From: Deinococcales bacterium
GTDB taxonomy: Bacteria; Deinococcota; Deinococci; Deinococcales; JAAFIG01
Direction: 5' to 3'
Length of the DNA stretch: 24,440 nt
Assembly (NCBI GenBank): GCA_043778225.1
Contig: JAYWGM010000050.1
Span: 1-24,440, forward strand
How positions within the stretch are numbered: position 1 is the first letter of the stretch; each line of letters opens with the position of its first letter. The position numbers and the translations under genes are program-made. Below are positions 1 through 24,440 of the stretch, one piece after another. The notes below the pieces were generated by a model, which ran no database searches, was not told where the DNA came from, and was given only the letters and a program-made list of their open reading frames with translations.

Positions 1-464
1 AGGGTTTTTAAGGCATGTAAAAAACCAGCTTGGGGTTTTACAAAACCAGTTGTGTCTGGTGCAAGGGATGCTCCAAAAACCAGCCCGTACTGCTCGAGAA
101 CAAAGTTTTGGTACTTGGCTAAACCATTTGTACCAAGCGTTAAAAGCCAGCCCTTGGCATCGAGTTTTTCCAGCGCTCGCTGTGTATCGGGGTAGAGCAG
201 GGCTTCATCCCAATGCGCCTCAGTTGCCACCTCGAGAACCCGAGGCAGGCGCGGTGCGTTGTGGGCGGCACAAATTTGGTCATGAATGTCATCCCAGTCA
301 AACGCCGAGACGGGATTATCCGAAGCAAAACGCTTTTGGTACTCGAGCCTAAAGCCCTCGGACAGTTCAAGGCTTGAAAAATCCTCGCGCAGCCGCTTAA
401 AAACAGTCTTACCCATCGGCGAATCTAAAAGCGTCCCATCCAAATCAAAAGAAATCCAAGCCAT
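1..464 (-). CDS. HAD-superfamily hydrolase (3' end runs off the window; not in the ORF track)
   Basis: Manual translation from ATG 464 is open to the window edge: MAWISFDLDGTLLDS (motif I DxD), ...LYPDTQRALEKL...LTLGTNG (motif II), ...GFVKPQAGF (motif III K-P). TATGCT lies 6 nt before the ATG. Confidence 0.9.
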   Translation of the reverse strand, partial: MAWISFDLDGTLLDSPMGKTVFKRLREDFSSLELSEGFRLEYQKRFASDNPVSAFDWDDIHDQICAAHNAPRLPRVLEVATEAHWDEALLYPDTQRALEKLDAKGWLLTLGTNGLAKYQNFVLEQYGLVFGASLAPDTTGFVKPQAGFLHALKT

Positions 465-534
465 GGCAAGAGCATAAGAGGAAAAGGAGGAAAGAGAAAG
501 GAAGAAAACCCCAATCTGTCTCTTTCCTCTGTAT

Positions 535-1452
535 TTAATCCTCTGCCACACCAAGCGCCAAGCGCCACTGGAGTGCCAAACTCGAGAAAGCCGTGCTGGG
601 GGTGGCATAGCGCTCCAAAGCATGAAGCGTGGTCTCGAGGGCGGTGTCTGCCTTGACGCGAACAGCAGGAGGCAAGGCTCGCAGTGCAAAGCGCAAGGTG
701 TCTGGGGTCAGCAAACGGTCAAAGTTTTTCTCGAGTTGGTCGGCGGCGGTTAGGGCTTCAAGTACGCCCAATTGCAATTTCTCGAGAAAAGTTTTGGCAG
801 AGGCAAGAGCAGTTTTGGTTTTTTCGGATTCGAGAATCAACCCCGGGCGACCCGCTGCAAATGCCAAGAGTTCTGGGTCTATGACCTTCATGTGTTGCTC
901 GAGAATCGCATCTGGCACAGGCGGCACACGGTAACGCTGCGAACGTGAAACAATGGTTGGAATCATCCCCGAGGCATCCTCGGTGATAAAGACAAAACGG
1001 GCTTGGTGCGGCGGTTCTTCGACACTTTTTAAGAGTGCATTGGCGGCTGATTCGTTCAGGAATTGTGCGCCGTCAAAAATAATCACTTTATGGCGGTAAC
1101 GCGGCGAAAGTTCGATAAATTCAATCACATGGGTTTCAAAATCTTTGCCTGTGTCGTGCGAAGCACTGATTGCCCCAATTGGAATCAGGCTGACTCGGGC
1201 GCGTTTACCGGTGCTGGTTTCTTCACGTGGCGAAACCAATAAAACATCTGAATGCGAACCTGATAAGAAATTTTGACACGAAGCACAAACCCCACACGGC
1301 TCGAGACCCGTTGGTGCTTTGCAGTTCAGGCGCATGGCATACCAGTTGGCTAAACCACGCCGTCCGACTCGGGCTGCCCCTTCAAGAATAATGCTGTTGG
1401 CATTTGTTTGCTCGAGTAAAGGCTTAATCGCTTCGTGACCAATCAGTTTCAT
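535..1452 (-). CDS. holB: DNA polymerase III subunit delta'
   Basis: Degenerate Walker A (GAARVGR), zinc module LNC...EPCGVCASC, AANALLKSVEEPP and IPTIVSRS motifs of the clamp-loader delta' subunit. Confidence 0.88.
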   Translation of the reverse strand: MKLIGHEAIKPLLEQTNANSIILEGAARVGRRGLANWYAMRLNCKAPTGLEPCGVCASCQNFLSGSHSDVLLVSPREETSTGKRARVSLIPIGAISASHDTGKDFETHVIEFIELSPRYRHKVIIFDGAQFLNESAANALLKSVEEPPHQARFVFITEDASGMIPTIVSRSQRYRVPPVPDAILEQHMKVIDPELLAFAAGRPGLILESEKTKTALASAKTFLEKLQLGVLEALTAADQLEKNFDRLLTPDTLRFALRALPPAVRVKADTALETTLHALERYATPSTAFSSLALQWRLALGVAED

Positions 1453-2207
1453 CTGCCTAAATCCAAGCGCGAAGCCAAGGCTTCGGGCAGCCCAGCAGCT
1501 CGAATTTTCTTTTGGGCAGCAGCAATATCGTAAGCCACACGGTAAATCTCGAGCAATTTAGCGTTGGTGTCAAAAATCCCATAACTGGCTTTGGGGTTGC
1601 CATCTCGAGGTTGCCCAACACTGCCCGGATTGACAATCCAACGCCCTTTGGGTGGCATTGGCAAACGGTTTTCGTCTTCGGTACAGGCATGAAAAATCGT
1701 CAGGGCGGTGTTGTTATCTAAACAGGCAAAAACGCCAGCCAAATGCGAATGTCCAACAAATGCCAGCTTTCCAGCCCAATTCTTAAAAATGACTCGAGCC
1801 ACATTGACATTATCCACATATTCTTTGGGGTCTCGAGGCGAACCATGAATAAAAGTTACGGCTGCACCATCCAAGCGCACACTGGCTTGTTCGACCCATG
1901 TTTGCATCCAACCAAGCTGACTGGGCAGGAGTTGCGACATATTTAAGCGCAGACTTTGACCAACAGGAGTATCGGTTTTGATGTTTTTGCCCTGTGCCAT
2001 TTCTAAAAGCATGATGTCGTGGTTGCCCAGAATCGAGCGTGGTTTAAGCAGTTCGAGCCGTTTAACAACCGCTCCGGCATCTGCGCCATAACCAACCGCA
2101 TCGCCCAAGAAAATCGTTTGCTCAAAATTGTGTTTGCTGGCATCGGCTAAGACGGCATCTAAAGCATCTGAATTACTATGAATATCGGCAAGCAGCAAAT
2201 AACGCAT
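1449..2207 (-). CDS. Calcineurin-like metallophosphoesterase
   Basis: Motifs DIHSN, LGDAVGYG, GNHD, HGSP, GHSH, NPGSVGQPRDG. Start moved to ATG 2207 (MRYLLLADIH) with GGAG upstream. Stop overlaps the holB start (ATGA). Confidence 0.92.
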   Translation of the reverse strand: MRYLLLADIHSNSDALDAVLADASKHNFEQTIFLGDAVGYGADAGAVVKRLELLKPRSILGNHDIMLLEMAQGKNIKTDTPVGQSLRLNMSQLLPSQLGWMQTWVEQASVRLDGAAVTFIHGSPRDPKEYVDNVNVARVIFKNWAGKLAFVGHSHLAGVFACLDNNTALTIFHACTEDENRLPMPPKGRWIVNPGSVGQPRDGNPKASYGIFDTNAKLLEIYRVAYDIAAAQKKIRAAGLPEALASRLDLGR

Positions 2208-2302
2208 TATAAATCTCCAAACGCCAAAAACGGGCAAAAGTATACCAAGATAAACCAAGTATACATCTTGCAGCAAAAATACCAAAAAAATGTTTGGGCA
2301 AC

Positions 2303-2443
2303 TCAAATCTGTACAAGTTCAGCTACCAATCAAAACGTCAGCGGTTCAGCTACCAATCAAAACGTCAGCGGTTCGGCTACCAATCAAAACTCGAGCGGTT
2401 CAGCCTTTTATAACAGCCATTCAAATCTGCACAGGTTCAGCTA
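2303..2443. repeat. Array of five 23-bp units (mostly 27-bp period) related to the 3' end of degV
   Basis: Units at 2303, 2330, 2357, 2384 and 2421 (TCAAA-n9-GTTC(A/G)GC). The first four are separated by CCAA; the last is the true degV 3' end. Confidence 0.9.
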
Positions 2444-3263
2444 AGACCCCATATGTACCCGGTCCAACGTGTGCCGAAATGACCGCGCCACACTCGACCA
2501 CCGCAAATTCTTGAACCCCAAGTTTTTTACCTTCTTCTCGAGCCGCCATCACATCTTCGGGTTTATCGGTGTAGACATAAACCGCTCGAACCTGCCCATG
2601 CTTGGCGGTGTACTCGCGCAAATTTTTGACCACATTCTCGAGTGCCGCCCGTGCGCCGCGCTCACGCCCAGCAGCTTCGATTTTACCGTCCACCAAATGC
2701 AGAATCGGTTTGAAACCAAGTAAACCACCCAAAAGCGCCTGAGCGCCACCAATCCGACCATTTTTCTTTAAGAAATCTAGACTCGCCACCGAAAAGCGTA
2801 AATTGGTCTGGGCAATCAGCTTCTCGAGCGTGGCTTGAATGCTTTGGATGTTTTCGCCAGCCGCCGCCAAACGCCCTGCGCGTTCAAGCATCATCGTCAA
2901 CGAGCCACTGGCGGCTTTGGAATCCACGACCGTGATTTTACCAGCAAAATCTCGAGCCGATAATTCGGCTGAATTGTACGTGCCACTGAGCTTACTCGAG
3001 ATGTGCAGACTCAGCACATGGTCGTGGTTTTGCAGTAAGCGCTCGTACTCTCGAGCAAAATCTACGGGGGTGGGCTGACTGGTGCTGGGCATGGCAGCCC
3101 CAGCTTTAACCCCATCAAAAATATCGTGGGTGCTAATCTCGATGCCATCTTTATGGACTCCGCCCTTAAAATTAACGTACAACGGCACAACTGTTACACC
3201 CATTTGGGCAGCTTGGGCGGGTTTTATATCCGAAGTCGAATCGGTCACTAGGGCAATTTTCAT
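2421..3263 (-). CDS. DegV/FakB family fatty-acid-binding protein
   Basis: MKIALVTDSTSD, PSTSQP, HISSKLSGT, FLKKNGRIG, FKPILHL, ISAHVGPG. Start set at ATG 3263. Confidence 0.93.
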   Translation of the reverse strand: MKIALVTDSTSDIKPAQAAQMGVTVVPLYVNFKGGVHKDGIEISTHDIFDGVKAGAAMPSTSQPTPVDFAREYERLLQNHDHVLSLHISSKLSGTYNSAELSARDFAGKITVVDSKAASGSLTMMLERAGRLAAAGENIQSIQATLEKLIAQTNLRFSVASLDFLKKNGRIGGAQALLGGLLGFKPILHLVDGKIEAAGRERGARAALENVVKNLREYTAKHGQVRAVYVYTDKPEDVMAAREEGKKLGVQEFAVVECGAVISAHVGPGTYGVLAEPVQI

Positions 3264-3293
3264 GATGTCCAAAAGACTAGCACTCTTGGGGCG

Positions 3294-3345
3294 GTCAAAT
3301 GAAGACCCACATCACTTATCGTCAAATGAAGACCTACATCACTTA
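3294..3345. repeat. Tandem duplication with 27-bp period upstream of degV
   Basis: GTCAAATGAAGACC(C/T)ACATCACTTA occurs at 3294 and at 3321. Confidence 0.9.
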
Positions 3346-3395
3346 GGAATTGTCCGTTAATAACTTCCCGATTTGGAAATGAATCATCATTAACT

Positions 3396-3505
3396 GTAAG
3401 GGCGAGGCATCTTGACCATATACACGCACCTACGGGCATGGTCGCAAGCCCCGCCCCTACGACAAAAACTGTTTTCAGCCGTAGGGGTTGGGCTTGCCTA
3501 ACCCC
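3396..3505. repeat. GTAG-class REP/REPIN-like inverted repeat element
   Basis: GCAAGCCCCGCCCCTACG (3444-3461) is inverted against CGTAGGGGTTGGGCTTGC (3480-3497). The right copy is GTAG followed by the hairpin GGGGTTGGGC-TT-GCCTAACCCC. A degenerate GTAAGGGCGAGGCAT...CGCACCTAC precedes them. Confidence 0.65.
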
Positions 3506-3537
3506 ACCATTTACGGATTTTATTCTTGGACAAATCC

Positions 3538-3969
3538 TTATCGGATTTTGCTGCTTTCGGTGTTGGCATGAAACTCGAGGTATTTGAGCCACGCCTTGGC
3601 GCTTAGGTCGCCCATCATGTTGTGCGCCACTTTGCCTTTGGCAGCCTCGAGCAATGGTGTTAATGCCACCAATTCACGGCGGGTTTCCTTAAAGTCGGCT
3701 AATAAGCTGTTCCAAGCACTGTCTTTTGGTGGATAATAGGCTTGGCTCGAGTCCATGACCAATGGTTTTTCGTTCAATAGCACCCGCAACCGATTTAAGC
3801 CCCAGCGTTCGATGGCGACAATATGCGCCAAGGTCTTTCTCGAGGCTGGGCTTTCGCCAGCTTTTTCACAACGCTGGACTATTTTTGCGCCACTGCCCTC
3901 GAGTTTCTGCACATAAACGCCAGTAGACACTTGATTCTCGAGAAAAAGTCCAGCCAAAAACTTGAGCAT
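3538..3969 (-). CDS. DinB-like superfamily protein (putative)
   Basis: LAHIVAIERW and a C-terminal H-x4-DLSAKAWLKYLEFH pattern resemble the DinB/YfiT four-helix family. Start set at ATG 3969. Confidence 0.55.
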   Translation of the reverse strand: MLKFLAGLFLENQVSTGVYVQKLEGSGAKIVQRCEKAGESPASRKTLAHIVAIERWGLNRLRVLLNEKPLVMDSSQAYYPPKDSAWNSLLADFKETRRELVALTPLLEAAKGKVAHNMMGDLSAKAWLKYLEFHANTESSKIR

Positions 3970-4019
3970 AAAAGACTGTAACCTAAAGCTGCCAAGTTTT
4001 TTGTGGCAATTCACCATTT

Positions 4020-4033
4020 TGTAAGCGCTATCG
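4020..4033. promoter_or_regulatory. Candidate LacI-family (cre-like) operator
   Basis: TGTAAGCGCTATCG resembles the TGWAARCGYTWNCW consensus and lies about 40 bp upstream of the SBP start. Confidence 0.4.
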
Positions 4034-4072
4034 GTTAAGCTGACAATTGCATTACAATTTTAAGGAGGATTT

Positions 4073-5827
4073 ATGAAACGACGTTTAATCGCGCTGTCCA
4101 TGCTCTTATCGGTCTCGACCGCTCTTGCAGCCGACAGCAAAGGCGCACCGCAAATGACCGCCATGCCAAAGCTGGGCATTCAGGAAGGTAAATACGGCGG
4201 CAGTTATACCTTAATGATTCCAGCCGCCCCCGGTAGCTTTAATTATTATGGCATTACCGACAACAACGCCTATACCGTACTTGGCAATGCTTTTGAAGGT
4301 TTGGTCGAGTACAACCTCGAGACCTACAAAATGGAACCCAGCTTAGCCCAGTCTTGGACAACCTCTGAGGATGGTAAGGTCTATACTTTTAAGCTGCGAC
4401 GCGGAGTTAAATGGCACGATGGTCAGGATTTTAATGCCGATGATGTGGTTTTTACCTTTAACAACATGATTCTAAACCCACAAGCTCGAGGCAACAGTGC
4501 GGCAGGCTTTCCGGCTGGCACAAAATTTGAAAAAGTAGACGAGTTCACGATGCGAATGACCATGCCTTCACCGTCTGGGGCAATTTTGCAGCAATTACGA
4601 ACTTTTATCATGCCCAAGCACAAGCTCTTAAAATTTAGCATCGAAGGTGGGGCTGCACCCGCCGAAATCAACACACCTTGGGGAACAAACAGCAACTTGG
4701 CTGATATTGTCGGCACAGGACCGTTTAAGTTTAGCAGCTACACCGCCGACCAAAAAATTGTCATGGCAAAAAATGCCAATTACTGGAAAGCCGATGCTTT
4801 TGGCAACAAATTGCCGTACATAGATAGACTCGAGTACCTGATTATCAAAGACAGCAACGCCCAAATTGCCCAGATGAAATCGGGTGGTATTGATGCGCTG
4901 AACATCACGGGTGCGCTTTTTCCAGAACTCAAAGCCGCCGAAGTGGCTGGAGCAGCTTTTAAGGTGGTTCGTGCCGCCGCGCTTTTTGGCAGTCCACCAC
5001 ACTTGGCTTTTAATTTTGATGCCAAAGACCCAGAATTGGCACGGCTTTTTAGCAACGATAAATTCCGTCAAGCCATTCAGCCAGCCGTCAATCGCAAACG
5101 GATTATTGATGATATTTTTAATGGACTTGCTGAATTGCCCGGCACACCAGTTGCTCCAGTCTCGAGTTGGTATTTTGACACCCGTAGCTACTTAGGCAAT
5201 TACGATTTGCGTGCCGCCAATGCTGCGCTTGATGCTTTAGGCTTAAAAGACACCGATGGCAACGGAACTCGAGATTTTGCTGGTGGCAAAGAAATCGAAT
5301 TTAGCCTGATTGCTCCAAACGATAACCCATTTTTCCCCGGTCATCTGATTGCACCCGTTATTCAAGCCGACTTAAAAAGCATTGGCATTAAAGCCAATTT
5401 GCAAATTCTGACCACCAGTGCGACTTTTTCCAAAGCCAATGCTGGAGACTTTGAAGCCGCTATTTATGGATTTGGCAATCAACCCGACCCACAACTCCGC
5501 AAAGCCATTTGGCAACCGGGTGGCGATTTGTACTACTGGCACTCGAGCTTACGTCCAAAGCCCGGGCAGCCAATCAGCAAAGCCAACATGAAAAGCTGGG
5601 AAAAGCGCTTATTTGATATTTTTGAAGAAGCCTCGAGAATCACCGACCAAGGCAAACGCGGCGCACTGTACGACGAATGGCAGCTTTTGAATGCCAAGTA
5701 CCTGCCGGTCATCATGATTGCCAAGCCTGCCAACATTGCAGTCGTCAGCAATAAAATTGGTAATTTTGTCTATAACCTCGGTCCGATTCCTTCGTATGTG
5801 ACCAACCAGATTGTCTACAATAAGTAA
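4073..5827 (+). CDS. ABC transporter substrate-binding protein, family 5 (OppA/AppA-like)
   Basis: AAGGAGG RBS, Sec signal peptide (STALA-A), EGLVEY...PSLAQSW...YTFKLRRGVKWHDG...ADDVVFT and VGTGPF motifs. Confidence 0.93.
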   Translation: MKRRLIALSMLLSVSTALAADSKGAPQMTAMPKLGIQEGKYGGSYTLMIPAAPGSFNYYGITDNNAYTVLGNAFEGLVEYNLETYKMEPSLAQSWTTSEDGKVYTFKLRRGVKWHDGQDFNADDVVFTFNNMILNPQARGNSAAGFPAGTKFEKVDEFTMRMTMPSPSGAILQQLRTFIMPKHKLLKFSIEGGAAPAEINTPWGTNSNLADIVGTGPFKFSSYTADQKIVMAKNANYWKADAFGNKLPYIDRLEYLIIKDSNAQIAQMKSGGIDALNITGALFPELKAAEVAGAAFKVVRAAALFGSPPHLAFNFDAKDPELARLFSNDKFRQAIQPAVNRKRIIDDIFNGLAELPGTPVAPVSSWYFDTRSYLGNYDLRAANAALDALGLKDTDGNGTRDFAGGKEIEFSLIAPNDNPFFPGHLIAPVIQADLKSIGIKANLQILTTSATFSKANAGDFEAAIYGFGNQPDPQLRKAIWQPGGDLYYWHSSLRPKPGQPISKANMKSWEKRLFDIFEEASRITDQGKRGALYDEWQLLNAKYLPVIMIAKPANIAVVSNKIGNFVYNLGPIPSYVTNQIVYNK

Positions 5828-5838
5828 TCCTTTTTGAT

Positions 5839-5868
5839 AGCGCTCACCTTTGGGGTGAGCGCTTTTTT
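5839..5868 (+). terminator. Rho-independent terminator
   Basis: AGCGCTCACC-TTTGG-GGTGAGCGCT hairpin followed by a T tract right after the SBP stop. Confidence 0.9.
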
Positions 5869-5891
5869 ATTTTCTGCTACAATAGTTTTCT

Positions 5892-6563: not shown

Positions 6564-6925
6564 GCCTCGAGGTACAAATTTTTGGTCTTCAAAAATCGTC
6601 AGAAACTCGAGCCGCCGAGCGTTTTTTTAAGGAACGCAAAATTAAAATCCATTTGGTGGATTTACTCGAGCGCCCGATTGCCAATGGCGAACTCAAACGC
6701 TTTTTGGATAAATTTGGTTGGGATAACCTGCTAGACCGTGCTGGCAAAACCTATCAAACGGCTGGTCTGGAGTACCTCAAACTTTCCGAAGAAGCATGGG
6801 TGGCTCGAGTCCAGGACGAACCACGTTTGTTGTCTTTGCCACTGGTGCGGATTGGTAAGCACCTCGCCATTGGGCGTAACGAAAACGCTTGGAAAGCGAT
6901 GCTCGAGACCGAAGTCAAAAAATAG
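6560..6925 (+). CDS. ArsC/Spx/MgsR family protein (no cysteine)
   Basis: VQIFG..KS.ETRAAERFFKE and PRLLSLPLVRIG pattern. ATGA overlap with the upstream gene. Confidence 0.8.
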   Translation: MSLEVQIFGLQKSSETRAAERFFKERKIKIHLVDLLERPIANGELKRFLDKFGWDNLLDRAGKTYQTAGLEYLKLSEEAWVARVQDEPRLLSLPLVRIGKHLAIGRNENAWKAMLETEVKK

Positions 6926-6952
6926 AAGATTAAGAACAGGGCGACCACAAAC

Positions 6953-8086: not shown

Positions 8087-8174
8087 AAGGTCTAAAGGCA
8101 AGGTGAAAAGGTTAAAGGGTTAAAAGGTTAAAAGAGAAAAACTTTTCACCTTTTTTACTTTTTCCCTTTTAACC

Positions 8175-8660
8175 CTAGTCATTCGCCATCGGCAGGGGCA
8201 TTCCGCTTTGGGTGGCGGGGTTAGCGAGTAATCTGGCTTTGGTGGCAGCATCGGCAAACTGTGCCTCGAGCAGTAAATCCTTGAGAGTGGCATTGCCCAA
8301 GACATCGCGGATAGCAGAGTCCACCCGCCGCCAGAGGCTTTCTGTACCGCACGAAGACACATGGGTGCAACTGCTCGAGTCCTCGATACACGAAACTGGA
8401 GCGATGCTGCCTTCCATCACCTCGACGACCTCGAGTGCCGAAATAAGTTCGGGCGCACGGGCGAGTTTATAACCGCCAAATGCCCCACGGACACTGCGGA
8501 TAAAGCCAGCCCGTCGCAAGTTAGAAGCAATTTGCTCGAGGTAATGCTGCGAAATACTCTGGCGTTCTGCCACATATTTAAGCGCCACCGATTCGCCGTT
8601 GGCGTTAGCGATTTCGACAAGGGCGCGAAGTCCGTACTGAGCTTTGGTTGAAATCCACAT
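8175..8660 (-). CDS. Rrf2 family transcriptional regulator (IscR/CymR-like)
   Basis: STKAQYGLRAL, YLEQI, SVRGAFGGYKLAR and three Cys (C-x6-C-x5-C). Directly upstream of iscS. Confidence 0.92.
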   Translation of the reverse strand: MWISTKAQYGLRALVEIANANGESVALKYVAERQSISQHYLEQIASNLRRAGFIRSVRGAFGGYKLARAPELISALEVVEVMEGSIAPVSCIEDSSSCTHVSSCGTESLWRRVDSAIRDVLGNATLKDLLLEAQFADAATKARLLANPATQSGMPLPMAND

Positions 8661-11539: not shown

Positions 11540-11588
11540 AAACTCAAGTCTTTAGTTTCTAGGCACTCGTGAATAATTGAGGTCAAAT

Positions 11589-14500
11589 ATGAAAATCAAT
11601 AAAAGTCAAGTCGTCGGAGTCATAGGGGCTTTGGTGCTTGCGAGTTGCACAAGCCAAAATCTTGTACAGCCACCAAATGTTGAATCTGAACGCAGAGTCG
11701 TTGGAATTGTCAATGTTGAGTTTCTGATGTCAGAAAATAACAATTTAGTCATGGCAAATGCCAAATTTCAACCCAATTCAAAACTCTCAACCCAAACATC
11801 TCCATTGACAGATAATTCGATCACGTTGGAAAGAGTATTCGGAACACGAGTAGACTACTTTCCAACACGCCAACGCTTTGTTGCTTCAACATTAAGACTT
11901 ACGAATAATACAAATTTGGCGTTCAAAAACTTAACAATTTATGGTATCAATCGGGTAAGTAGTATCAATGGTACTGCTTTTACGAACCTGCTAAGGGAAA
12001 ATAGTACACCAATTGCAGACCCAGCAGGCACCGCAATACGAATTAAACCAAACCATGGTATGCAAATCAATGCGACAACCCTGTCACTTGCAGTAGACCC
12101 TAACAAAGCCGATTTACAGGTTATTACTCCTGCGGAAGCCGATGCTATTGAATTATTGCCTGCAATGCTAGGTCCGACAGGACTTATTGCAACCAAACAG
12201 ATTCAGCAAGTTCTCGAGTATGGATTTGTGGCACGCAACTTCGCAACTTCAGGAAATAAGCGTACAATAGCCGCTAGTGGTGGAACAGGACAGGTAAGTA
12301 TCGCCCTAAATTTACCACTTGAAACAGATTCTTTTGAAAGCCCTGCCCGTTTGTTTTGGTCATTTCTAGTTGTGGATGAACCTGTTACTCGTGTGACCCG
12401 CAGTGTCGAAGAAGGAAACGACATTCTAAATGTTGCCAATCGTGCCGATGATACTGGTGTTATTGCGCCAGATGTTCGTGAAGTCTTGATGATGGGACGC
12501 GATGTTGCCAATATTCCAACCACAACGACTTCAACAGGTGGTCAAGAGTACAAAATTGCTCCATTATCCCCAGCACTCAATTTGGTTCAAGTGCCTTACA
12601 ATCAAGTTCGTGTTGGTACAGTAGCCCCAACATTTATCAGCGACTTTGGCGAAATCTTTGTCCAAGCCAATGCTTCTCCGGGTGGTAATGGGTCTTCGGG
12701 TTTACCATTCAAAACCATTCAAGAAGGCGTAGATGTTGCTGTATTAGGCGCTAACGATATTGTTCGTGTTCGCAGTGGTACATATCCTGGCAATGTTAAT
12801 GTCAATAAAGATGTACGCATTTTCGGACCTGCGTCAGGTACAGATGGTCGTGATGTTACCCGTTGCGTAACTGGTGTTGGACCAAGCTGCGCCAGCGATG
12901 CTGTAATAAAAGGTGCAGTAACCATCTCTTCAAGTGCGGCAGCTACATTCTCGGGTTTCCGTTTCTTGGATAATAGTCCTCAGGGTGTTGCACCAGATGT
13001 TTTCTTACTCGATATTACAACTGTGCAGAACCACTTGATTGAAAATAACGTTTTCTACCGTGATGGTGTTGTTGCAGAAACCTCTCCAAATAGTGGTGTG
13101 TACGCTTTTGTGGGTGGAGGCAATACAAATAAGCAAGTTGGTGCAATTCGCACGGCTGTCGAAAATTCACCTTCAACCAACAAAATTGTTATTCAAAAGA
13201 ATCGCATTAGTGGTAATCCTGTTAATGCCTCTGGTATCTATGCTAATAAGAGTTGGGGTGCTTCCCGTGCGCCAGCAGTTAGTATCGGTGGTGGCACAAG
13301 TGGAAAACTTGACTTCAAAGACAATGATATTGATTCTGCTCGAGGTGCTTTGTACATTGATAAACCGAATGCAGACCATGTAGTCACTGGCAATACCTTC
13401 AAAGACAATGGCACAGCCTTTGGTCTGACGAATGTCACTCTTTCCAGTTTCTCAATTACTGGTAATACATTTAGTACAACAAGTGACGCAATACCACCAT
13501 TGCCAGCCAACCGTTTACTGGACCGTAAAGAAGTCACTTACTTTAACTTGCGTAACGCCGTACCAAATACGTTCACTTTAACGGCTTCCAATAACACCTA
13601 CGATGGTAAATTGCCATCTGCCATGACCAAGCCAGAATTGTTTGATCTCGAGGATCAGACCGATCACCGCATTGATGCTGCTGCTTGGGGCTTGGTGCGT
13701 TTTAAGCCAACTGAGTTGTACGTCACGATTTTCTCTTGTGCAGCCGATCCTTTGTGTAACGCCGGTGATGCCAATCCACAACGTGCCATTGATGCAGCTA
13801 CCGCAGGTGATACAGTCAACATCGAAGCTGGAACATATACCAATCAACTAAGCATCGCCAAGAATCTGAACATTGTTGGTGATGGTGCGACCACAATTAT
13901 TCAAGCTCCAGCAGGGGCAGCTTTGGTTGTGAATGGTGGTACAAACAACAATGCCAACTTAATTGATATGACTGCGGGTACGGTCAGCATGACGATGCTT
14001 AAAATTAAAGGACCGCATACTAAATCTGGTAGTCCTTGTAACAGCACCATGAAATTGAATCGTGGCATTTCTATCTCGGGTGGGGCATTAACCATGACCG
14101 ATTCGTTTATAGATTCAATTCGTGATACAGCTATATTTAATTGCGCCAATCAGGGTGTTGGTATTTATGTGGGTTCGGGTAGCCTGAATATCTCTGGTTC
14201 AGAAATTACCAATTTCCAATCTGGTGGTATTCTTGTGACTGGTGCAAGCAGCAGTGCAATCATCGATGATAATTTGATCCAAGGCAACACAGCCAACCCT
14301 GTGACTTCCAGAGGAATCGAAGTTGCCAGTGGTGGCGTGGCAACCATCACCAATAACGGTATCAAAGATGTACAATGCCCAACTTGTGTCGCCAACGAAG
14401 ATGTTGGAATTGGTATTTTGGTTCGTACCACTGGTCTTGTTACGATTACAGGTAATAACACCATCGAAAATAACGAATTGGGTATTAACGCTCGTGGTGC

Positions 14501-14963
14501 AGGGCTGAACTTGGTCATTAATACCAATACATTCACGGGTAATCTGGATGCTGGTGTGCGCTTCTTTGCCAATGAAGGTCTTTCTACACCTGCTTCGGGT
14601 AATGTTACTTTTAACACCAATACTCTGGTTGGTCCAGTCGTTCCTGGTGCATCGGTTTGCTTTGATGCAGAAACTAACTTGCTTGCCTCTGCCAGCTTGA
14701 CTGTAACAGGGACTGGTAATAAGCTCAGCAAGTGCAATTATGCAATTGAACTCAATGATTCTGCTATTATCGCCAATAAAATCAATCTGAGTTTGCAAAG
14801 CGGTAACATTGATGGTGTGACCCGTGATATGTTCAACACTGGTTCGCCTGCACCTAGTCTTCTTGACAACTGGTGGGTAACAACTGTTGGTCCATTCCCA
14901 CTCAATCTTCCAAGCATTGTAGGCGCGGCAAACACTGCACCAGTGGCAGTTGCTCCTTACTAA
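11589..14963 (+). CDS. Large surface lipoprotein with two right-handed beta-helix (pectin-lyase-fold/DUF1565-like) modules
   Basis: ATG 11589 with GAGGT RBS; lipobox LVLASC (Cys20). Beta-helix caps PFKTIQEGVD..VRVRSGTY and PQRAIDAATAGDTVNIEAGTY are followed by Asn/Gly/Ile-rich repeats (ITGNTF, IDDNLI, ITNNGI). Confidence 0.85.
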   Translation: MKINKSQVVGVIGALVLASCTSQNLVQPPNVESERRVVGIVNVEFLMSENNNLVMANAKFQPNSKLSTQTSPLTDNSITLERVFGTRVDYFPTRQRFVASTLRLTNNTNLAFKNLTIYGINRVSSINGTAFTNLLRENSTPIADPAGTAIRIKPNHGMQINATTLSLAVDPNKADLQVITPAEADAIELLPAMLGPTGLIATKQIQQVLEYGFVARNFATSGNKRTIAASGGTGQVSIALNLPLETDSFESPARLFWSFLVVDEPVTRVTRSVEEGNDILNVANRADDTGVIAPDVREVLMMGRDVANIPTTTTSTGGQEYKIAPLSPALNLVQVPYNQVRVGTVAPTFISDFGEIFVQANASPGGNGSSGLPFKTIQEGVDVAVLGANDIVRVRSGTYPGNVNVNKDVRIFGPASGTDGRDVTRCVTGVGPSCASDAVIKGAVTISSSAAATFSGFRFLDNSPQGVAPDVFLLDITTVQNHLIENNVFYRDGVVAETSPNSGVYAFVGGGNTNKQVGAIRTAVENSPSTNKIVIQKNRISGNPVNASGIYANKSWGASRAPAVSIGGGTSGKLDFKDNDIDSARGALYIDKPNADHVVTGNTFKDNGTAFGLTNVTLSSFSITGNTFSTTSDAIPPLPANRLLDRKEVTYFNLRNAVPNTFTLTASNNTYDGKLPSAMTKPELFDLEDQTDHRIDAAAWGLVRFKPTELYVTIFSCAADPLCNAGDANPQRAIDAATAGDTVNIEAGTYTNQLSIAKNLNIVGDGATTIIQAPAGAALVVNGGTNNNANLIDMTAGTVSMTMLKIKGPHTKSGSPCNSTMKLNRGISISGGALTMTDSFIDSIRDTAIFNCANQGVGIYVGSGSLNISGSEITNFQSGGILVTGASSSAIIDDNLIQGNTANPVTSRGIEVASGGVATITNNGIKDVQCPTCVANEDVGIGILVRTTGLVTITGNNTIENNELGINARGAGLNLVINTNTFTGNLDAGVRFFANEGLSTPASGNVTFNTNTLVGPVVPGASVCFDAETNLLASASLTVTGTGNKLSKCNYAIELNDSAIIANKINLSLQSGNIDGVTRDMFNTGSPAPSLLDNWWVTTVGPFPLNLPSIVGAANTAPVAVAPY

Positions 14964-16995: not shown

Positions 16996-17117
16996 AAAGA
17001 CCTCAGTAGTTTAACACGAATCATACCGAATTAACTTACTCACTCTCATTTGACCTAAAAAGCGGTCAAACTGTCGTTCATGCGTAAATTCGGTATTTTT
17101 GGTACTCCTTTTAGTCG

Positions 17118-17148: not shown

Positions 17149-17159
17149 ACAATTTGGTG

Positions 17160-17951: not shown

Positions 17952-17979
17952 AAACCGCAGTCTACAGCAACCAAGTGAC

Positions 17980-18906: not shown

Positions 18907-18961
18907 CTTGGGCAGTATAACCAATGCTGGATGCTTGTGCAGTGTCAGGCATAAAATGATT

Positions 18962-19375
18962 TTAACGAATCAGATGGACTTGGCAGCGTAGGTTTGGCAG
19001 TTTTGCCCAGTTCTGCTCGGCGGTCAAGACCTCGAGTTGCTGCATTTCGGCAGTTGCCAGACAGATACAATCGCCAAGCGATAATTGATAGGGGTGTCGC
19101 CTTGCATAAAAATAAGCAGCAGGCTGTACCAAGGTTTCGAGCAGTGGCACGACCCGTAAATCAAGAGTTTTGATGTCCTGTTCGACTTCATTGACTGGGG
19201 CTTTACCACTCGAAACGAGTTTGCCAATCACTTCGATTAAATTGCTACTGCTGATGGCGGTGCTGGTCTGTAATTGTTGTTCAACCATTTCCCAACCTGT
19301 TTCTTGGGCGAACCAAGCGATTAAAGCACTGGCATCCAGCAACCGTTCCTTGCTGATCCATTTTTTAGTTTTCAT
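18962..19375 (-). CDS. vapC: VapC-type PIN-domain toxin
   Basis: LLDASALIA, NLIEV, LSLGDCICLATA and LTAE supply the PIN acidic residues. ATGA overlap with the upstream partner gene. Confidence 0.88.
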   Translation of the reverse strand: MKTKKWISKERLLDASALIAWFAQETGWEMVEQQLQTSTAISSSNLIEVIGKLVSSGKAPVNEVEQDIKTLDLRVVPLLETLVQPAAYFYARRHPYQLSLGDCICLATAEMQQLEVLTAEQNWAKLPNLRCQVHLIR

Positions 19376-19689
19376 GTTCTTTCGCGGCGGCGCTGCTCGA
19401 GTAATTCAGTCGTTAAATCACGCCCTTGGGTTTGGTATTTACCGCGTAAAGCCGATAAAACTTCGTGGCGCGATATTTGGGGACGATATAATTCCGCCAA
19501 CTGGGCAATTGGTTTTCCCAAGGCTTTCTCAAGTCTAAAAAGCGTCTCTAAACTTGGTGTTGAAGTAGGTTTTTTGACCAAGTTAAAAATTGTGGCTCGC
19601 CCAATTTCGGCATAAGCCGCAAATTCCTCGAGTTTTGTAAGCTCTAAATCTTGCATTCTGGAGCGAATCAGTTGATCTAAATTCTGCAT
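19372..19689 (-). CDS. Putative antitoxin with XRE-type HTH
   Basis: LEEFAAYAEIGRATIFNL...PSLETLFRLEKALG (XRE HTH) and a charged C-terminal tail. Translationally coupled to vapC. Confidence 0.75.
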   Translation of the reverse strand: MQNLDQLIRSRMQDLELTKLEEFAAYAEIGRATIFNLVKKPTSTPSLETLFRLEKALGKPIAQLAELYRPQISRHEVLSALRGKYQTQGRDLTTELLEQRRRERT

Positions 19690-19726
19690 TTATCTAACAT
19701 ACAAGATTTTAGTCTTTTTTTCAAGA

Positions 19727-21181
19727 CTAGCGGTTTCTGACCAGTGCTTCTAAATAAACCTCGAGATTGGTGTACCCAGCCACGCCCAGCTTTGGCTGCG
19801 AAAGCTGCAAGCCATTGTGGTCTGCCACTCGAGGATTCAAACCATTGGCATTTTCCCATCTGTCGGGCATTCCGTCGTTGTCTGAATCTTGTGGAGCAAC
19901 AGTTGCAGCCCTGGTTTTAAGCGCATCTCGAGCCACGTTCAGACTGCGCGGGGTGGCATCAAAAGTGCTGCTCGAGACAAATTTCATGACTCGAGTGTCA
20001 AAAGCATCCCATGGACGCATTCCGATTTTTGGCGTGTACTCGAGTAGTTTTTGGCTTGGAGTGTAGGTCATGCTTGGAAACTTCAGTCGCTCGAGCGCCG
20101 CCCAAGTGGGTAAACGGTTGGCAAAGAGCATGGTCTGGTCGCGCAGTGCCTCCTTAAAATCGTTGCAGCAATAGACCAGTTGCCAATCGGTGGCAGTCCC
20201 TAGGTTACTGCGGTTGTCCTGCATAAAAAGACGGGTTGGAGTCGAGTCGGGCAAATAATCTGGCGAATTTGTGCCTTCGAGGGTGAGTAAACCAACACTG
20301 GTGCTGTTTTTTGGGTTTTGCAAGGAGTAATTTCCCACCAGATTGGCGCGGTAGTAAATCGGAGCGCTGTTGTAGCCATCTTGTGGTGCATTGACCAAAG
20401 CTGTATTGCCCAACCAGATTGGAAAAGTATGGTCATGAAAAATATTATTTGAAATTTCAAGCTCCATCGTGCTGTTGGTGGCACTTGGGTTTTCTCGAGA
20501 TACCTCGGGAATCCGCCCACCAATCCGTGTCCAAACATTGTGGTGCAAAGAAATTCGGGTCAATGGAAAATTGCGCTTTGGGTCGGTGTAATTCAAAAGC
20601 ATTCCACCAAGGTCGTTGTGTTCGCCAGTGGTTTCTGCCAGTAAACTGTTCTGCACCGTCACATCACTCGAGAAAGAAATCTGGACAGCTTCATCGGTGG
20701 CATTGCCGATCGAAAAATGGTCAATTATAATTCGTTTGGCACGGTGTAAACGTAAGCCATCACCATCCAAAGAAGCTCGAGAACGCAAATAGCGCACAAT
20801 CAGATTGCTTGGTGCAACCCGTGGCAATGGGCAATTATCGGCTTCACAGACCGAATCGCCTTGAATCAACAAACCACGCACCGTGATTCCACTTGGGCTG
20901 GTTTGTCCAGCGATGGTCAGGTTGCCACTCGAGACCATCGGTGTTCCCTCAATCACCCCAGAGACCCGAAAAACAATGGTACGCGCCCCAGTTTGGTCAA
21001 GCGCATTTTGCAAAGACCCAACGCCACTCGAGCGCAGATTAGTAACAGCAATCACTCGTCCGCCACGCCCACCGGTGGCAGTTGCCCCAAAACCCTCTGC
21101 GCCAATAAAAGCTGGCAAAGCTGTTTGAGACGCTAACCCAAGGAAAACTGCCCCAAACAGCCAGACCAAGAAGATTCGCAT
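19727..21181 (-). CDS. Secreted pectate-lyase-like protein (PL1-related beta-helix)
   Basis: Signal peptide, PAFIGAEGFGATATGGRGGRVIAVTNL, TIAGQTSP, IIDHFS, C-terminal DSDNDGMPDRWE...GYTNLEVYL. Start set at ATG 21181. Confidence 0.85.
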   Translation of the reverse strand: MRIFLVWLFGAVFLGLASQTALPAFIGAEGFGATATGGRGGRVIAVTNLRSSGVGSLQNALDQTGARTIVFRVSGVIEGTPMVSSGNLTIAGQTSPSGITVRGLLIQGDSVCEADNCPLPRVAPSNLIVRYLRSRASLDGDGLRLHRAKRIIIDHFSIGNATDEAVQISFSSDVTVQNSLLAETTGEHNDLGGMLLNYTDPKRNFPLTRISLHHNVWTRIGGRIPEVSRENPSATNSTMELEISNNIFHDHTFPIWLGNTALVNAPQDGYNSAPIYYRANLVGNYSLQNPKNSTSVGLLTLEGTNSPDYLPDSTPTRLFMQDNRSNLGTATDWQLVYCCNDFKEALRDQTMLFANRLPTWAALERLKFPSMTYTPSQKLLEYTPKIGMRPWDAFDTRVMKFVSSSTFDATPRSLNVARDALKTRAATVAPQDSDNDGMPDRWENANGLNPRVADHNGLQLSQPKLGVAGYTNLEVYLEALVRNR

Positions 21182-21188
21182 AGAACCC

Positions 21189-21196
21189 AATATACT
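21189..21196. promoter_or_regulatory. Overlapping back-to-back -10 boxes for two leaderless genes
   Basis: Plus strand TATACT-7nt-ATG(21204); minus strand TATATT-7nt-ATG(21181). Confidence 0.6.
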
Positions 21197-21203
21197 CTGC
21201 CTT

Positions 21204-21611
21204 ATGGAAATTACCCTCGGTACGCCGGCACTCCTTTTCCCAGCGATTTCGCTTTTAATGCTGGCGTATACCAACCGCTTTCTGGCACTGGCGGCGCTGA
21301 TTCGGCGCTTGTCCGAAGATTACCAACAAGACCATCAACACGGTATTTTGGAACAAATTAAAGCCTTGCGTTACCGAATTCGGCTGATTCTTTGGATGCA
21401 ATCGGGCGGCATTGCCAGCCTTGCCTTGTGCGTTGCAGCCATGCTTGGGGTGTTGTTTAAGCAAGAAACCATGGCGGTGGTGCTGTTTGCCTCGAGCTTA
21501 ATGCTGATGCTGCTTTCTTTGGTTTTATCGTTGCTCGAGATTCGGGTCTCGACCAATGCCTTAACGGTTGTGCTGCGCGATCTCGAACTTCATAAACATG
21601 GGAATCCATGA
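21204..21611 (+). CDS. DUF2721-like membrane protein
   Basis: TPALLFPAISLLMLAYTNRF and EIRVSTNAL pattern, three hydrophobic segments. Confidence 0.8.
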   Translation: MEITLGTPALLFPAISLLMLAYTNRFLALAALIRRLSEDYQQDHQHGILEQIKALRYRIRLILWMQSGGIASLALCVAAMLGVLFKQETMAVVLFASSLMLMLLSLVLSLLEIRVSTNALTVVLRDLELHKHGNP

Positions 21612-21649
21612 CCTTGTGTTGAATGGACTTTCGGGTCATGATTTTGCCG

Positions 21650-21991
21650 ATGTCGCAGCCCTATTTTTTCAAAACCCAAGCCCATATCCTGATTTGTACC
21701 GATGAACGCTGTGCTGTCACTGGCTCAAAAATACTTTTCCAAGCGGTTTGGGCTGGTTTTGAAACCGAAAAACTAGCCTATTACAAGACTGGTGGCAATT
21801 TGCGCTTAACCGAATCGGGTTGTCTTGGGGCGTGTCAGTTCGGTCCAGCCGTGGCTTGTTACTTGAAGCGCGGCTCGAGTCTCGAGCAGGCATGGTATCA
21901 GCGCATGACCTACCCAAAGACAATGCAGTTAGCCAAGGCGCTGCATGGTGGTCTCGAGTTACCAAGCCAAGGGCGTTTTGACACCGATTAA
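21650..21991 (+). CDS. Thioredoxin-like [2Fe-2S] ferredoxin
   Basis: ILICTDERC ... ESGCLGACQFGP ... WY. Start set at ATG 21650; 21623 and 21638 are alternatives. Confidence 0.82.
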   Translation: MSQPYFFKTQAHILICTDERCAVTGSKILFQAVWAGFETEKLAYYKTGGNLRLTESGCLGACQFGPAVACYLKRGSSLEQAWYQRMTYPKTMQLAKALHGGLELPSQGRFDTD

Positions 21992-22476
21992 GGCAGCACC
22001 AAATCTGCGCCAAGACCTTCTGGCAGTGGATACCCAAGTAAACGTCCTAGCAACAGCAATTGCCCTTGATGATGAAATTCGTGGGTCATCGGACGCACAA
22101 TCAACCAGCGTTTTGTGACCATAAATTGGTCGCGCCCAGGTCGCACCACCTCAAAGGGCGCGTCTACATCATCAAAAGTTGCAAATGCCTGCTCGAGAAT
22201 TGTGTCCACCTCGAGGAATTTAGCTCGCATGGCGGCTGGCGTGTTGATGGCTTTCATCTCGAGTTCTTGTTCAAAAGCGGGTAATCCAAGTCCGTAACGC
22301 CCAACCCACCATAGATAAGCGTAGGCAATATGGGCGTGAAGATCGCGGATACTGCCGTAAGGTACGTCTTGATGCTGCTGCAAGTACACTTCGGGCGGAA
22401 GACTTTCGGTGTATCTCTGTACGTCTTCTCGAGTGCGTTTAACCCAGTTGTATATCAGTGGCAAAGAAGTGTCCAT
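21988..22476 (-). CDS. DinB/YfiT family protein
   Basis: GSIRDLHAHIA and THEFHHQGQL provide the three-His metal site. TAATG coupling to the ABC gene. Confidence 0.88.
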   Translation of the reverse strand: MDTSLPLIYNWVKRTREDVQRYTESLPPEVYLQQHQDVPYGSIRDLHAHIAYAYLWWVGRYGLGLPAFEQELEMKAINTPAAMRAKFLEVDTILEQAFATFDDVDAPFEVVRPGRDQFMVTKRWLIVRPMTHEFHHQGQLLLLGRLLGYPLPEGLGADLVLP

Positions 22477-24239
22477 TAAGCCATCACCAGCTTTTTGCGC
22501 TCACCGATTTGTTGTCGCCACATCGCGTAGTACAAGCCCTTCTCGAGCAGCAGGGCTTCGTGCGAACCAGTTTCGACAATTTCGCCGCGCTCGAGAACAT
22601 AAATTCGGTCAGCGTGCATGATCGTACTTAACCTGTGGGCTATTAAAACCGTGATTTGCTGTCCCGAACTCGAGATTTCGCGGATGGTGTTGGTGATGTC
22701 TTCTTCGGTTAAAGAATCGAGCGCACTGGTGGCTTCATCAAAAATCAGGATATTTGGCTGGCGCAACAAGGCTCGAGCGATCGAAATGCGCTGTTTTTCG
22801 CCGCCAGACAGCTTTAAGCCACCTTCGCCGATGGTTGTGTCCATACCTTTTTCGGCTTTTGCCAACAGCCCATTGCACGAGGCTCGAGACAGGGTTTGGC
22901 GCAGCAATTCATCCGAGGCATTTGGCGCAACAAACAGCAGATTTTCTTTGATTGTGCCGCTAAATAGCTGGGTGTCTTGAGTCACAAAACCAATCTGAGC
23001 GCGGAGTTCTTCAAAGTTAATGCTTGTTTCCGAGACTCCATTATAAAAAACGCTGCCCGTATCTGGACGGTATAAGCCAACCAAGAGTTTCATCAGGGTG
23101 CTTTTACCAGAACCACTCGGTCCAACAAATGCAATCGTTTCGCCTCGAGTGACCTTAAAATCAATTTTTTCAATCGCATTGTGAGTCGCGCTTTGGTGCT
23201 TAAAACTGACGCTCGAAAAATGTAAATCCTGGACTGCACCAAGATTTTTTGGCTCGAGTGGCTGGGCTTCGGGGGCTTTTTGCATCAGTTTCTCAAAATT
23301 ATTTAAGGAGGCTTCGGCTTCGCGGTACGAAAGCAACACATTGCCAATTTCTTGCATTGGACCAAAGACAAAAAAAGCAAAAAACTGCATTGTAATCAGT
23401 TGTTCAGCCGAAATGGTCTTGCCGAAAATTAAAAACATCAAAATAAATAAAATCACTTGGCGCAGTGTGTTGACCATCGTGCCTTGGACAAAACCAATGC
23501 CTCGAACGTTTTTGACTTTCTCGAGTTCAAGTCCAAGGATTTTCTGGGTGTTTTTGTTGAGGCGCGTAATTTCTTGCCCTGTTAAACCAAGGCTTTTGAC
23601 CAATTCGATGTTGCGTAGGCTTTCGGTGGTTGAACCCGCTAAAGCTGTGGTTTTGGCAACAATCGTTTTTTGAATAATTTTTAAGCGCTGACTGAGTGCA
23701 TTGGTGGCAAAAACCATCAAGACAGCCCCGAGCGCGTAGGCTATCGGTAAGCTCCAATGGACAAAAAGTGCGGCGTAGACAAACACAAAAATAACCGCAA
23801 TAATCACACCAAACAGCACATTGATCGCATAATTTAAGAATTTTTCAACATCGGCACGCACCTTGGTCAGAATAGATAAAGTTTCGCCACTGCGCTGGTC
23901 TTCAAAATCTTGATAGGGCAGTTTCATGGCGTGCTGCAAACCATCGCTAAAAACCTGAGCGCCAAATTTTTGCACAATCACATTCAAATAGTAATCCTGA
24001 AAATTTTTGGCAATGCGGCTGACCATCGCCACCCCAACACTGGCAGCCAGTAAAGTCAGCACGGTCGGCAAAAAATCGTTCCAATCGAGCGGCTTGGTTT
24101 CTTGACTAAACGCCAGTTTAACCAGTTGCCCCGTAATAATCGGGTCGAGCAAAGAAAAACCCGTGTTGATGGCAGCCAAGATAAGGGTGATGATCACCAA
24201 GTTGCGATGCGGTTTTAAGTATAAGAGTAGTATTTTCAT
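22476..24239 (-). CDS. ABC exporter, fused TMD-NBD half transporter
   Basis: N-terminal TM helices, GPSGSGKS, VTQD, LSGGEKQR, IFDEATSALD, IAHRLST. Start set at ATG 24239. Confidence 0.94.
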   Translation of the reverse strand: MKILLLYLKPHRNLVIITLILAAINTGFSLLDPIITGQLVKLAFSQETKPLDWNDFLPTVLTLLAASVGVAMVSRIAKNFQDYYLNVIVQKFGAQVFSDGLQHAMKLPYQDFEDQRSGETLSILTKVRADVEKFLNYAINVLFGVIIAVIFVFVYAALFVHWSLPIAYALGAVLMVFATNALSQRLKIIQKTIVAKTTALAGSTTESLRNIELVKSLGLTGQEITRLNKNTQKILGLELEKVKNVRGIGFVQGTMVNTLRQVILFILMFLIFGKTISAEQLITMQFFAFFVFGPMQEIGNVLLSYREAEASLNNFEKLMQKAPEAQPLEPKNLGAVQDLHFSSVSFKHQSATHNAIEKIDFKVTRGETIAFVGPSGSGKSTLMKLLVGLYRPDTGSVFYNGVSETSINFEELRAQIGFVTQDTQLFSGTIKENLLFVAPNASDELLRQTLSRASCNGLLAKAEKGMDTTIGEGGLKLSGGEKQRISIARALLRQPNILIFDEATSALDSLTEEDITNTIREISSSGQQITVLIAHRLSTIMHADRIYVLERGEIVETGSHEALLLEKGLYYAMWRQQIGERKKLVMA

Positions 24240-24261
24240 TTTTATCCTAATATGGAGCAGC

Positions 24262-24290
24262 AAAAAAGCAGGCAACCCTTGCCTGCTTTT
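24262..24290 (-). terminator. Intrinsic terminator upstream of the ABC gene
   Basis: AAAAAAGCAGGCAA-CCC-TTGCCTGCTTTT hairpin with T tracts on both strands. Confidence 0.8.
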
Positions 24291-24343
24291 GGTATTCTAA
24301 CAAATTATTCAGGTATTTTCTGTTCGTAACACAACACGACTTA

Positions 24344-24408
24344 GTGCAGCGTCGGATAAGTCTTTCGATTCTTCGTTCCTTGAAACTACAGACTCTCCGA
24401 CGCTGCAC
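24344..24408. repeat. Long imperfect inverted repeat (MITE- or ncRNA-like)
   Basis: GTGCAGCGTCGGA(TA)AGTCT ... AGACT(C)TCCGACGCTGCAC: 13-bp perfect arms plus 5 further bp. Confidence 0.7.
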
Positions 24409-24440
24409 CTATCGGTACTCGCATAGCTCGCCAAGTCTAC

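Follow-up and report, generated by a model that had tools for sequence, protein, structure and literature searches.

CTCGAG is a highly iterated palindrome in an uncultured family of the Deinococcales

Why does one stretch of bacterial DNA carry a single palindromic hexamer, CTCGAG, more than a hundred times, and what keeps it there? The stretch, here called the window, is the 24,440-base contig JAYWGM010000050.1 of a Deinococcales bacterium (assembly GCA_043778225.1). It is the entire contig C50 of the genome that we label G000 (4.03 Mb, 107 contigs, 89% complete, 48.7% GC). A first-pass annotation of the window had tallied 125-130 sites by hand, put the enrichment at about 20-fold and likened the word to HIP1, the highly iterated palindrome (HIP) of cyanobacteria. 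The exact count is 127 in 24,440 bases, compared with a mean of 3.09 (standard deviation 1.76, maximum 9) in 100 dinucleotide-preserving shuffles, none of which reached 127. The earlier tally was accurate and its 20-fold conservative, the enrichment being 21-fold relative to 1/4096 and 41-fold relative to the dinucleotide shuffles. All three reading frames are used, as had been claimed: by our own calls of open reading frames (ORFs), 72 sites read CTC GAG, 30 read xCT CGA Gxx and 19 read xxC TCG AGx.

In the whole G000 genome we counted 24,877 copies of CTCGAG in 4,029,277 bases (6,174 per Mb, or one per 162 bases), which is 26.7 times the zero-order expectation. All 98 contigs longer than 5 kb carry the word at 4.0-10.6 per kb. 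It is about 3 times more common than any other hexamer; the hexamers that rank next are its own overlaps, and the commonest unrelated one, CAAAAA, has 5,347 copies. Since CTCGA is mostly extended by G (88.8% of cases) and the flanks are weakly biased (31% G at position -1, 30% C after the word), the unit is the hexamer. That the hyper-abundance itself is real we regard as almost certain.

Plain counts of CTCGAG were then compared among 61 genomes of the order, 13 from the window's family and 48 from four other families. The 13 family genomes, which represent five genera, all carry CTCGAG at 4.3-6.8 per kb, and the 48 genomes of the other families all stay at or below 2.9 per kb. A two-site proxy for CTCGAG abundance scored positive in 18 of 18 genomes of the family. 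The family loci that we fetched run from about 37% to 66% GC, so the trait is not tied to base composition. CTCGAG abundance is a trait of a whole uncultured family in this Deinococcus-Thermus order. A search with the cysteine desulfurase of the window gave distant relatives and none from the family, the best being Thermus at 54% and a Deinococcota metagenome-assembled genome at 53%, in keeping with a probable place in this order.

In a sister family (f3, genus g7), CTCGAG is strongly depleted, with 128-942 copies per genome or 0.03-0.27 per kb in 12 genomes of 3.5-4.8 Mb. Thus one word is avoided in one family and hoarded in another. Among the other palindromes of G000, 31 of the 64 palindromic hexamers occur at less than 0.06 times expectation (GGCGCC with 3 copies, GGGCCC, AGGCCT and GACGTC with 1 each, GAGCTC with 24), and words containing GATC or GGCC are low as a class. 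That is, an extreme restriction-avoidance signature stands beside one hyper-abundant palindrome. GAGCTC is near-absent in the family as well (0-25 copies in 11 of 13 genomes), and because it is almost absent no two CTCGAG sites lie exactly six bases apart.

Coding constraints do not produce these numbers. CTCGAG is as dense within the 3,585 ORF-called genes of G000 (6.17 per kb) as between them (6.20 per kb). When synonymous codons were shuffled, with every protein and the codon usage of every gene kept, 2,376 ± 36 sites arose (maximum 2,451, n=10), compared with 22,188 observed in ORFs; shuffling codon order gave 1,027 ± 33. Leu-Glu is the most over-represented dipeptide in G000 proteins (observed/expected 2.33, versus 0.97 for Glu-Leu), and 13,039 of the 18,854 Leu-Glu pairs are spelled CTCGAG where the codon shares (CTC 18.2%, GAG 37.6%) predict 6.8%. 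CTCGAG has raised the Leu-Glu content of the proteome, and this is a measurable cost of the word: that content has more than doubled. The first-pass annotation had argued that amino-acid usage is insufficient and that a genome-wide process is at work, and it had named loss of the enrichment under a codon shuffle and confinement to the window as outcomes that would overturn its view. Neither was seen. The synonymous shuffle, the density along 98 contigs and the comparison with related genomes that it had proposed all bear the two claims out.

We aligned G000 with 399 kb of its congener G003, in which CTCGAG occurs at 5.04 per kb. Across 187 gene pairs (201,216 bases, 77.8% identity, third-position identity 58%), the two genomes have in common 523 of 817 sites in frame 0 (64%), 123 of 242 in frame 1 (51%) and 173 of 271 in frame 2 (64%), compared with a baseline of about 29% for all hexamers. 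Where the amino acid is conserved, CTC is kept in 74.5% of cases within CTCGAG versus 32.9% elsewhere, GAG in 81.8% versus 45.6%, CGA in 65.7% versus 40.2% and TCG in 81.6% versus 51.1%. At conserved Leu-Glu pairs, a G000 site is also a site in G003 in 77.8% of cases. Sites turn over as well: 37.7% of the conserved Leu-Glu pairs that are non-sites in G000 read CTCGAG in G003.

Our worked example is a solute-binding-protein gene of the window (Table 1), for which we built a codon alignment of G000 with G001, G003, G007, G006 and G002 (77-85% nucleotide identity). At one of the sites present in G000 only (5268..5273), the five congeners read TTCGCA, TCCGTA, TTCGTA or TACGCG. Retention together with turnover, as judged from these alignments, appears to be the signature of a fixation bias, exerted by selection or by biased conversion. 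A pure mutational source does not fit, because mutation alone would not slow the loss of sites. Xu et al. applied the same conservation logic to HIP1 (PMC5861425).

As an aside to these alignments, multi-base differences at lost sites were considered as traces of patch conversion and rejected, since relaxation after a first change looks alike at saturated synonymous divergence. In two biofilm sequencing runs containing the window, probably the source of it, we found only contigs identical to it and no population variants.

Along the G000 genome, CTCGAG pairs less than 20 bases apart are short by half or more, and beyond 40 bases the spacing is Poisson, with a coefficient of variation of the gaps of 0.998. 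Apart from the 3-base coding period, no periodicity was detected at distances up to 1.2 kb. Nor did we find clusters beyond Poisson: the densest 300-base windows hold 8-10 sites, and none resembles an origin-type cluster. The density of the word increases with local GC. Of CTCGAG-free gaps of at least 1.5 kb, G000 has 19, mostly islands of 31-39% GC, and CTCGAG is missing only from such compositionally foreign islands.

CTCGAG is also found in DNA sampled from invaders. G000 carries one array of clustered regularly interspaced short palindromic repeats (CRISPR; Table 1), whose 43 spacers contain 10 CTCGAG in 1,184 positions (8.4 per kb), where 7.3 would be expected at host density and 0.27 at random. 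The word lies at varied offsets within the spacers, and the palindromes that the host avoids are absent from them (0 versus 9.9 expected). No spacer matched elsewhere in G000, and no protospacers were found in GenBank phages. A search for the CRISPR repeat with up to 3 mismatches allowed had no match in the remaining 18 genomes of the family; diverged copies occur in G002:C248 and G016:C292. One spacer matches a 6.4-kb virus contig of the congener G001 (C690) with 94% identity over 34 bases. Its genes code for an M23 peptidase, for a small packaging ATPase and for virion proteins, a gene set that we take to resemble the P23-77/IN93 group of Thermus viruses. The capsid-like gene of the contig has relatives in 20 of 101 order-level genomes.

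Three virus contigs from family hosts, C690 among them, together hold 85 CTCGAG in 23.3 kb (3.65 per kb). Their ORFs contain 66 sites, in all three frames, compared with 5.8 ± 2.2 (maximum 14) in 500 synonymous shuffles. Related virus loci in three other families of the order are listed for comparison in Table 1. The 31 palindromes avoided by the host were seen 8 times in two of the family virus loci (9.4 kb), versus 67 expected; in the related virus loci of other families they were seen 658 times, versus 804 expected. From these sequences, CTCGAG appears to follow host lineage and not virus ancestry. Given its presence in viruses and in CRISPR-sampled invaders, whatever keeps the word would act on all replicons of these cells. 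CTCGAG and the 31 avoided palindromes could be used jointly to assign viruses to hosts and to flag genes that were imported.

The three virus loci (L364 on G001:C690, L388 on G001:C298 and L389 on G016:C309) share a module of M23 peptidase, ATPase phrog_2666, virion proteins phrog_32089 and phrog_32692 and the capsid-like phrog_36565; L364 also has a RelE-like gene. Relatives of the capsid-like gene among viral contigs came to one weak match only, and no prophage terminase of family phrog_2 was found in G000. We also scanned viral contigs for three close CTCGAG sites. Among the matches listed, mostly high-GC contigs, are two IMG/VR phage contigs of 67-69% GC, L224 (terminase and RusA) and L183 (tape measure and baseplate), with 7.05 and 5.55 CTCGAG per kb, about 20 times the composition expectation. 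A search of 12 family genomes for the terminase of L224 found nothing.

To our knowledge, HIP1, which has puzzled workers for three decades, is known only from cyanobacteria. CTCGAG is a genuine highly iterated palindrome of this type, and thus a second, denser case in another phylum. Like HIP1 (GCGATCGC), it is a short GC-rich palindrome without a stop codon in any frame and over-represented tens of times; like HIP1, it lies both within and between genes, is more conserved between genomes than codons would predict and is rarely met in imported DNA (PMC4390886, PMC5861425). Gross over-representation, which for HIPs runs from 15- to 300-fold in Xu et al. (PMC5861425), is 26.7-fold here in the genome and 41-fold in the window when compared with shuffles. 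Coding and non-coding DNA carry the word alike (6.17 versus 6.20 per kb), and codon or peptide usage does not account for it (2,376 versus 22,188). Its sites are conserved with one congener (51-64% versus 29%; synonymous codons 66-82% versus 33-51%). The differences are equally plain. CTCGAG has six letters where HIP1 has eight, and it reaches 6,174 per Mb where HIPs reach 500-2,500 per Mb (Elhai, PMC4390886). According to Elhai (2015), a methyltransferase specific for the word or its core accompanies HIPs wherever the word is abundant; by sequence comparison, we found no cognate methylase common to this family. GGCGCC of Calothrix PCC 7103 is likewise a six-base palindrome and the outstanding over-represented hexamer of its genome (PMC4390886). 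That HIP is described from PCC 7103 and a 19-kb sample of Calothrix D253 and is tied to a GrCGyC methylase in the PCC 7103 genome (PMC4390886), whereas CTCGAG is common to a whole family (13 of 13 genomes) in which no such methylase was found. Our literature search, with subscription journals largely outside its scope, returned no report of CTCGAG hyper-abundance. A hot-spring preprint describes methylated CTCGAG and TCGA common to hosts and phages of one group. The function of HIP1 is presented as unresolved in PMC4390886 and PMC5861425. A family without a shared methylase separates the HIP phenomenon from the methylases that dominate current models, and it provides an independent system for three live ideas, namely repair drive, uptake or self-mark, and nucleoid site.

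What, then, maintains CTCGAG? Our best explanation, which we hold tentatively and at somewhat less than even chances, is a DNA-level fixation bias that acts in these cells on any replicon and most likely takes the form of biased mismatch correction or gene conversion. We favour it because the density is equal in all sequence classes, the sites are independent, retention goes with turnover, only foreign islands lack the word, viruses have it and no methylase is shared. A putative CTCGAG-recognising factor, other than a family-wide methyltransferase, would drive the bias. Correction of mismatches, or gene conversion between copies of the genome, with such a sequence-specific bias would favour CTCGAG alleles, and as a result changes that make a site would be fixed more often, and changes that break one less often, than neutral changes.

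Several points weigh against this explanation. Our tests cannot tell biased conversion from natural selection, since both produce one signature, and because no reader or repair protein was identified, the mechanism is read from the pattern alone. Retention is moderate, with third-position divergence within CTCGAG at 0.49-0.64 of baseline, and frame-1 sites are under almost no constraint except at one position. The conservation test covers one congener and 399 kb, and the spacer result covers 43 spacers of one array. The virus contigs are short fragments binned with their hosts and may be integrated proviruses that share the fate of the chromosome. Finally, genes were taken from our own ORF calls and not from a trained gene finder, so that DNA counted as intergenic may include small genes.

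In the main rival account, selection has made CTCGAG a mark of self: some conserved reader that serves uptake, recombination or defence would prefer or spare DNA with the word, and viruses would have acquired it to pass as self. We consider this a serious candidate, if on balance an unlikely one. The trait runs through the whole family and stops sharply at its edge, the word is missing from foreign low-GC islands and proteins are altered to fit it, all of which speaks for a mark, as does the finding that CRISPR-sampled invaders and viruses of the lineage carry CTCGAG and avoid the host's 31 palindromes (8 versus 67 expected). The DNA uptake sequences (DUS) of Neisseria and the uptake signal sequences (USS) of Pasteurellaceae are likewise family-wide, lie in genes and spacers, alter peptides and are thought to have been spread by a selection-like drive. 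These uptake sequences are asymmetric, 9-12 bases long and occur about once per kb. A like role holds for the uptake sequences of Neisseria and Haemophilus, and for HIP1 one is now being proposed. HIP1 correlates with pilus and competence genes according to PMC13756078 (2026), the source of the uptake idea for HIP1, and in experiments cited there it raises transformation in a way that depends on methylation. CTCGAG resembles uptake sequences as a family-wide word in genes and spacers that alters peptide content. It departs from them in being a 6-base palindrome found once per 162 bases, with weak flank preference, and in being present in viruses; its Poisson spacing is not more even than random.

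Other observations also speak against a mark. We found no candidate for a receptor or nuclease, nor a shared methylase that a methylation-dependent mark would call for. Transformation is not the route by which viruses enter, so that a drive by uptake alone fails to predict their enrichment unless they are integrated. One form of the idea would do without a methylase, and we rate it as rather improbable: CTCGAG would be the self-mark of the whole family, a conserved protein would read the bare sequence to tell resident from foreign DNA in recombination, uptake or defence, and viruses would have copied the mark and shed the avoided palindromes. If true, this would be the first highly iterated palindrome that marks by sequence alone.

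Distinctly unlikely, in our view, is methylation-coupled maintenance as in the Elhai model of HIPs, which the first-pass annotation had put forward as one example beside an uptake or recombination signal and nucleoid protein binding. An orphan methylase would mark CTCGAG, and methyl-directed or very-short-patch repair would turn near-misses into sites. HIPs are the precedent (PMC4390886), and 5-methylcytosine is found at CTCGAG in Halorubrum (PMC8112702). In Nocardia, an orphan CTCGAG methyltransferase is conserved, and CTCGAG forms clusters in the region from dnaA to dnaN (Blow et al. 2016, PMC4752239). G000 itself has many methylases (five full C5, three of the N4/N6 beta class, several of the gamma class and three of the D12 class). 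The best CTCGAG-type candidate is L013, a protein of 650 residues with N6_Mtase, Eco57I and TaqI_C domains, the last a TaqI-like specificity domain, and with M.BseCI among its PDB matches.

But L013, the only TaqI/BseCI-type adenine methylase, was found in 3 of 13 family genomes, and its copy in G003 (L287) has one in-frame TAA and may be decaying. The C5 methylase L001 is conserved in 6 of the 7 genomes of the genus and not beyond it. The C5 family had no match in the family genome G010, and the N4/N6 family had none in the single-contig family genome G013. Between G013 and G011 there are two pairs of orthologous D12 enzymes (62% and 77% identity), and these are at most 28% identical to the D12 enzymes of G000. 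When all seven G013 methylases were compared with the whole of G000, the best identities were 24.7-33.5%, with one enzyme lacking any match, whereas true cross-genus orthologues of restriction-modification genes in the family reach 58-77%. The XhoI endonuclease family had no match, in a search whose control had no match anywhere either. We found no methylase common to the whole family, although one of an unrecognised family may exist.

The words around CTCGAG do not fit methylation-coupled repair either. In E. coli, Dcm/Vsr very-short-patch repair (CCWGG) raises the word of the methylase at the expense of T-bearing neighbours. The likeness lies in a repair bias that raises the frequency of a word. 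Here, in contrast, Vsr (PF03852) had no match in the 89%-complete G000, the T-bearing neighbours are enriched (CTTGAG 1.40 times expectation, CTCAAG 1.42 times) and the effect is far larger. The six transition neighbours lie at 1.14-1.42 times the zero-order expectation and look like a mutational halo of the abundant word, and the twelve transversion neighbours lie at 0.14-0.92 times. The annotation had proposed depletion of one-mismatch neighbours as a test, and such depletion is therefore lacking among those variants on which a T:G repair would draw. The extension by G before and C after the word that the model requires is weak (31% G at -1). Control of replication by an orphan methylase, of the Dam or Nocardia type, finds no counterpart: Nocardia offers the same hexamer in a role outside restriction, but here the densest 300-base windows hold 8-10 sites, as Poisson spacing would give, no methylase is shared and the enrichment is genome-wide; the origin was not located. 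Of the earlier interpretation, the genome-wide process, the independence from amino-acid usage and the HIP1-like anatomy are supported, and its methylation-coupled version is not supported.

Less probable still is that CTCGAG is where a nucleoid or chromosome-architecture protein binds, with selection acting on how densely the sites line the chromosome. A palindrome suits a dimeric DNA-binding protein, and Xu et al. argued for such a role of HIP1 from conservation and a 10-90 kb periodicity (PMC5861425). CTCGAG, however, has no period but that of 3 bases up to 1.2 kb, forms no clusters and is present in small virus genomes too. That the word merely follows from codon, dipeptide or base composition, or from an artefact of assembly or library, has next to no probability: the Leu-Glu frame does hold 59% of coding sites, and high-GC relatives do reach 1.7-2.9 per kb, plausibly via codon use, but 89% of coding sites are lost under the synonymous shuffle, the density between genes equals that in genes, 13 of 13 family genomes show the trait with loci of about 37-66% GC, and the reversed word GAGCTC has only 24 copies in G000.

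Table 1. Locations of CTCGAG sites, genes and virus loci discussed in the text. Positions without a contig label refer to the window.
Feature	Location	Strand	CTCGAG	Length	Density	Remarks
CTCGAG across the contig	1..24440	none	127			121 in called ORFs, 6 outside; expected 3.09
Solute-binding-protein gene (SBP_bac_5)	4073..5827	+	7			Pfam; worked example, six genomes of the genus
Sites kept in 6/6 congeners	4829..4834; 5161-5166; 5542-5547					Alignment columns 795, 1127, 1508
Sites in 4/6 congeners	4316..4321; 4485-4490					Alignment columns 282, 451
Sites in G000 only	5268..5273; 5632-5637					Alignment columns 1234, 1598
CTCGAG-poor beta-helix ORF	11577..14963	+	3	3.4 kb (1128 aa)	0.9 per kb	GC 0.44; the one sparse stretch of the window
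CRISPR array	G000:C80:17-2691					44 repeats of 29 bases, 43 spacers; start of contig C80, cut by the contig end
Virus contig, family host	G001:C690		18	6.4 kb	2.8 per kb	
Virus contig, family host	G001:C298		39	11.3 kb	3.46 per kb	
Virus contig, family host	G016:C309		28	5.6 kb	5.04 per kb	
18 related virus loci	Three other families		20	60.4 kb	0.33 per kb	
L287, copy of L013	G003:C4:28861-30789					
Low-GC islands, few or no CTCGAG	G000:C40:7700-11073; C44:57436-63066; C92:61731-63236					31-38% GC
Short dispersed repeats	3400-3540; 8087-8178; ~17023-17100					
PIN-domain gene overlapping a helix-turn-helix (Cro/C1-type) gene	18962-19689	-	1 (PIN gene)		2.4 per kb (PIN gene)	

Several of the low-GC islands hold restriction-modification genes, for example a 431-aa methylase without CTCGAG and a 501-aa PglX-like methylase. 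The short dispersed repeats of the window have many copies in G000 and its congeners. Their core of about 40-55 bases occurs in about 40 copies in G000, none of them with CTCGAG, and assembly graphs link the copies to many places. We tried such repeats as polarised markers and discarded them, as they offered only these short copies. The overlapping PIN-domain and helix-turn-helix genes of the window are likely to be a toxin-antitoxin pair.

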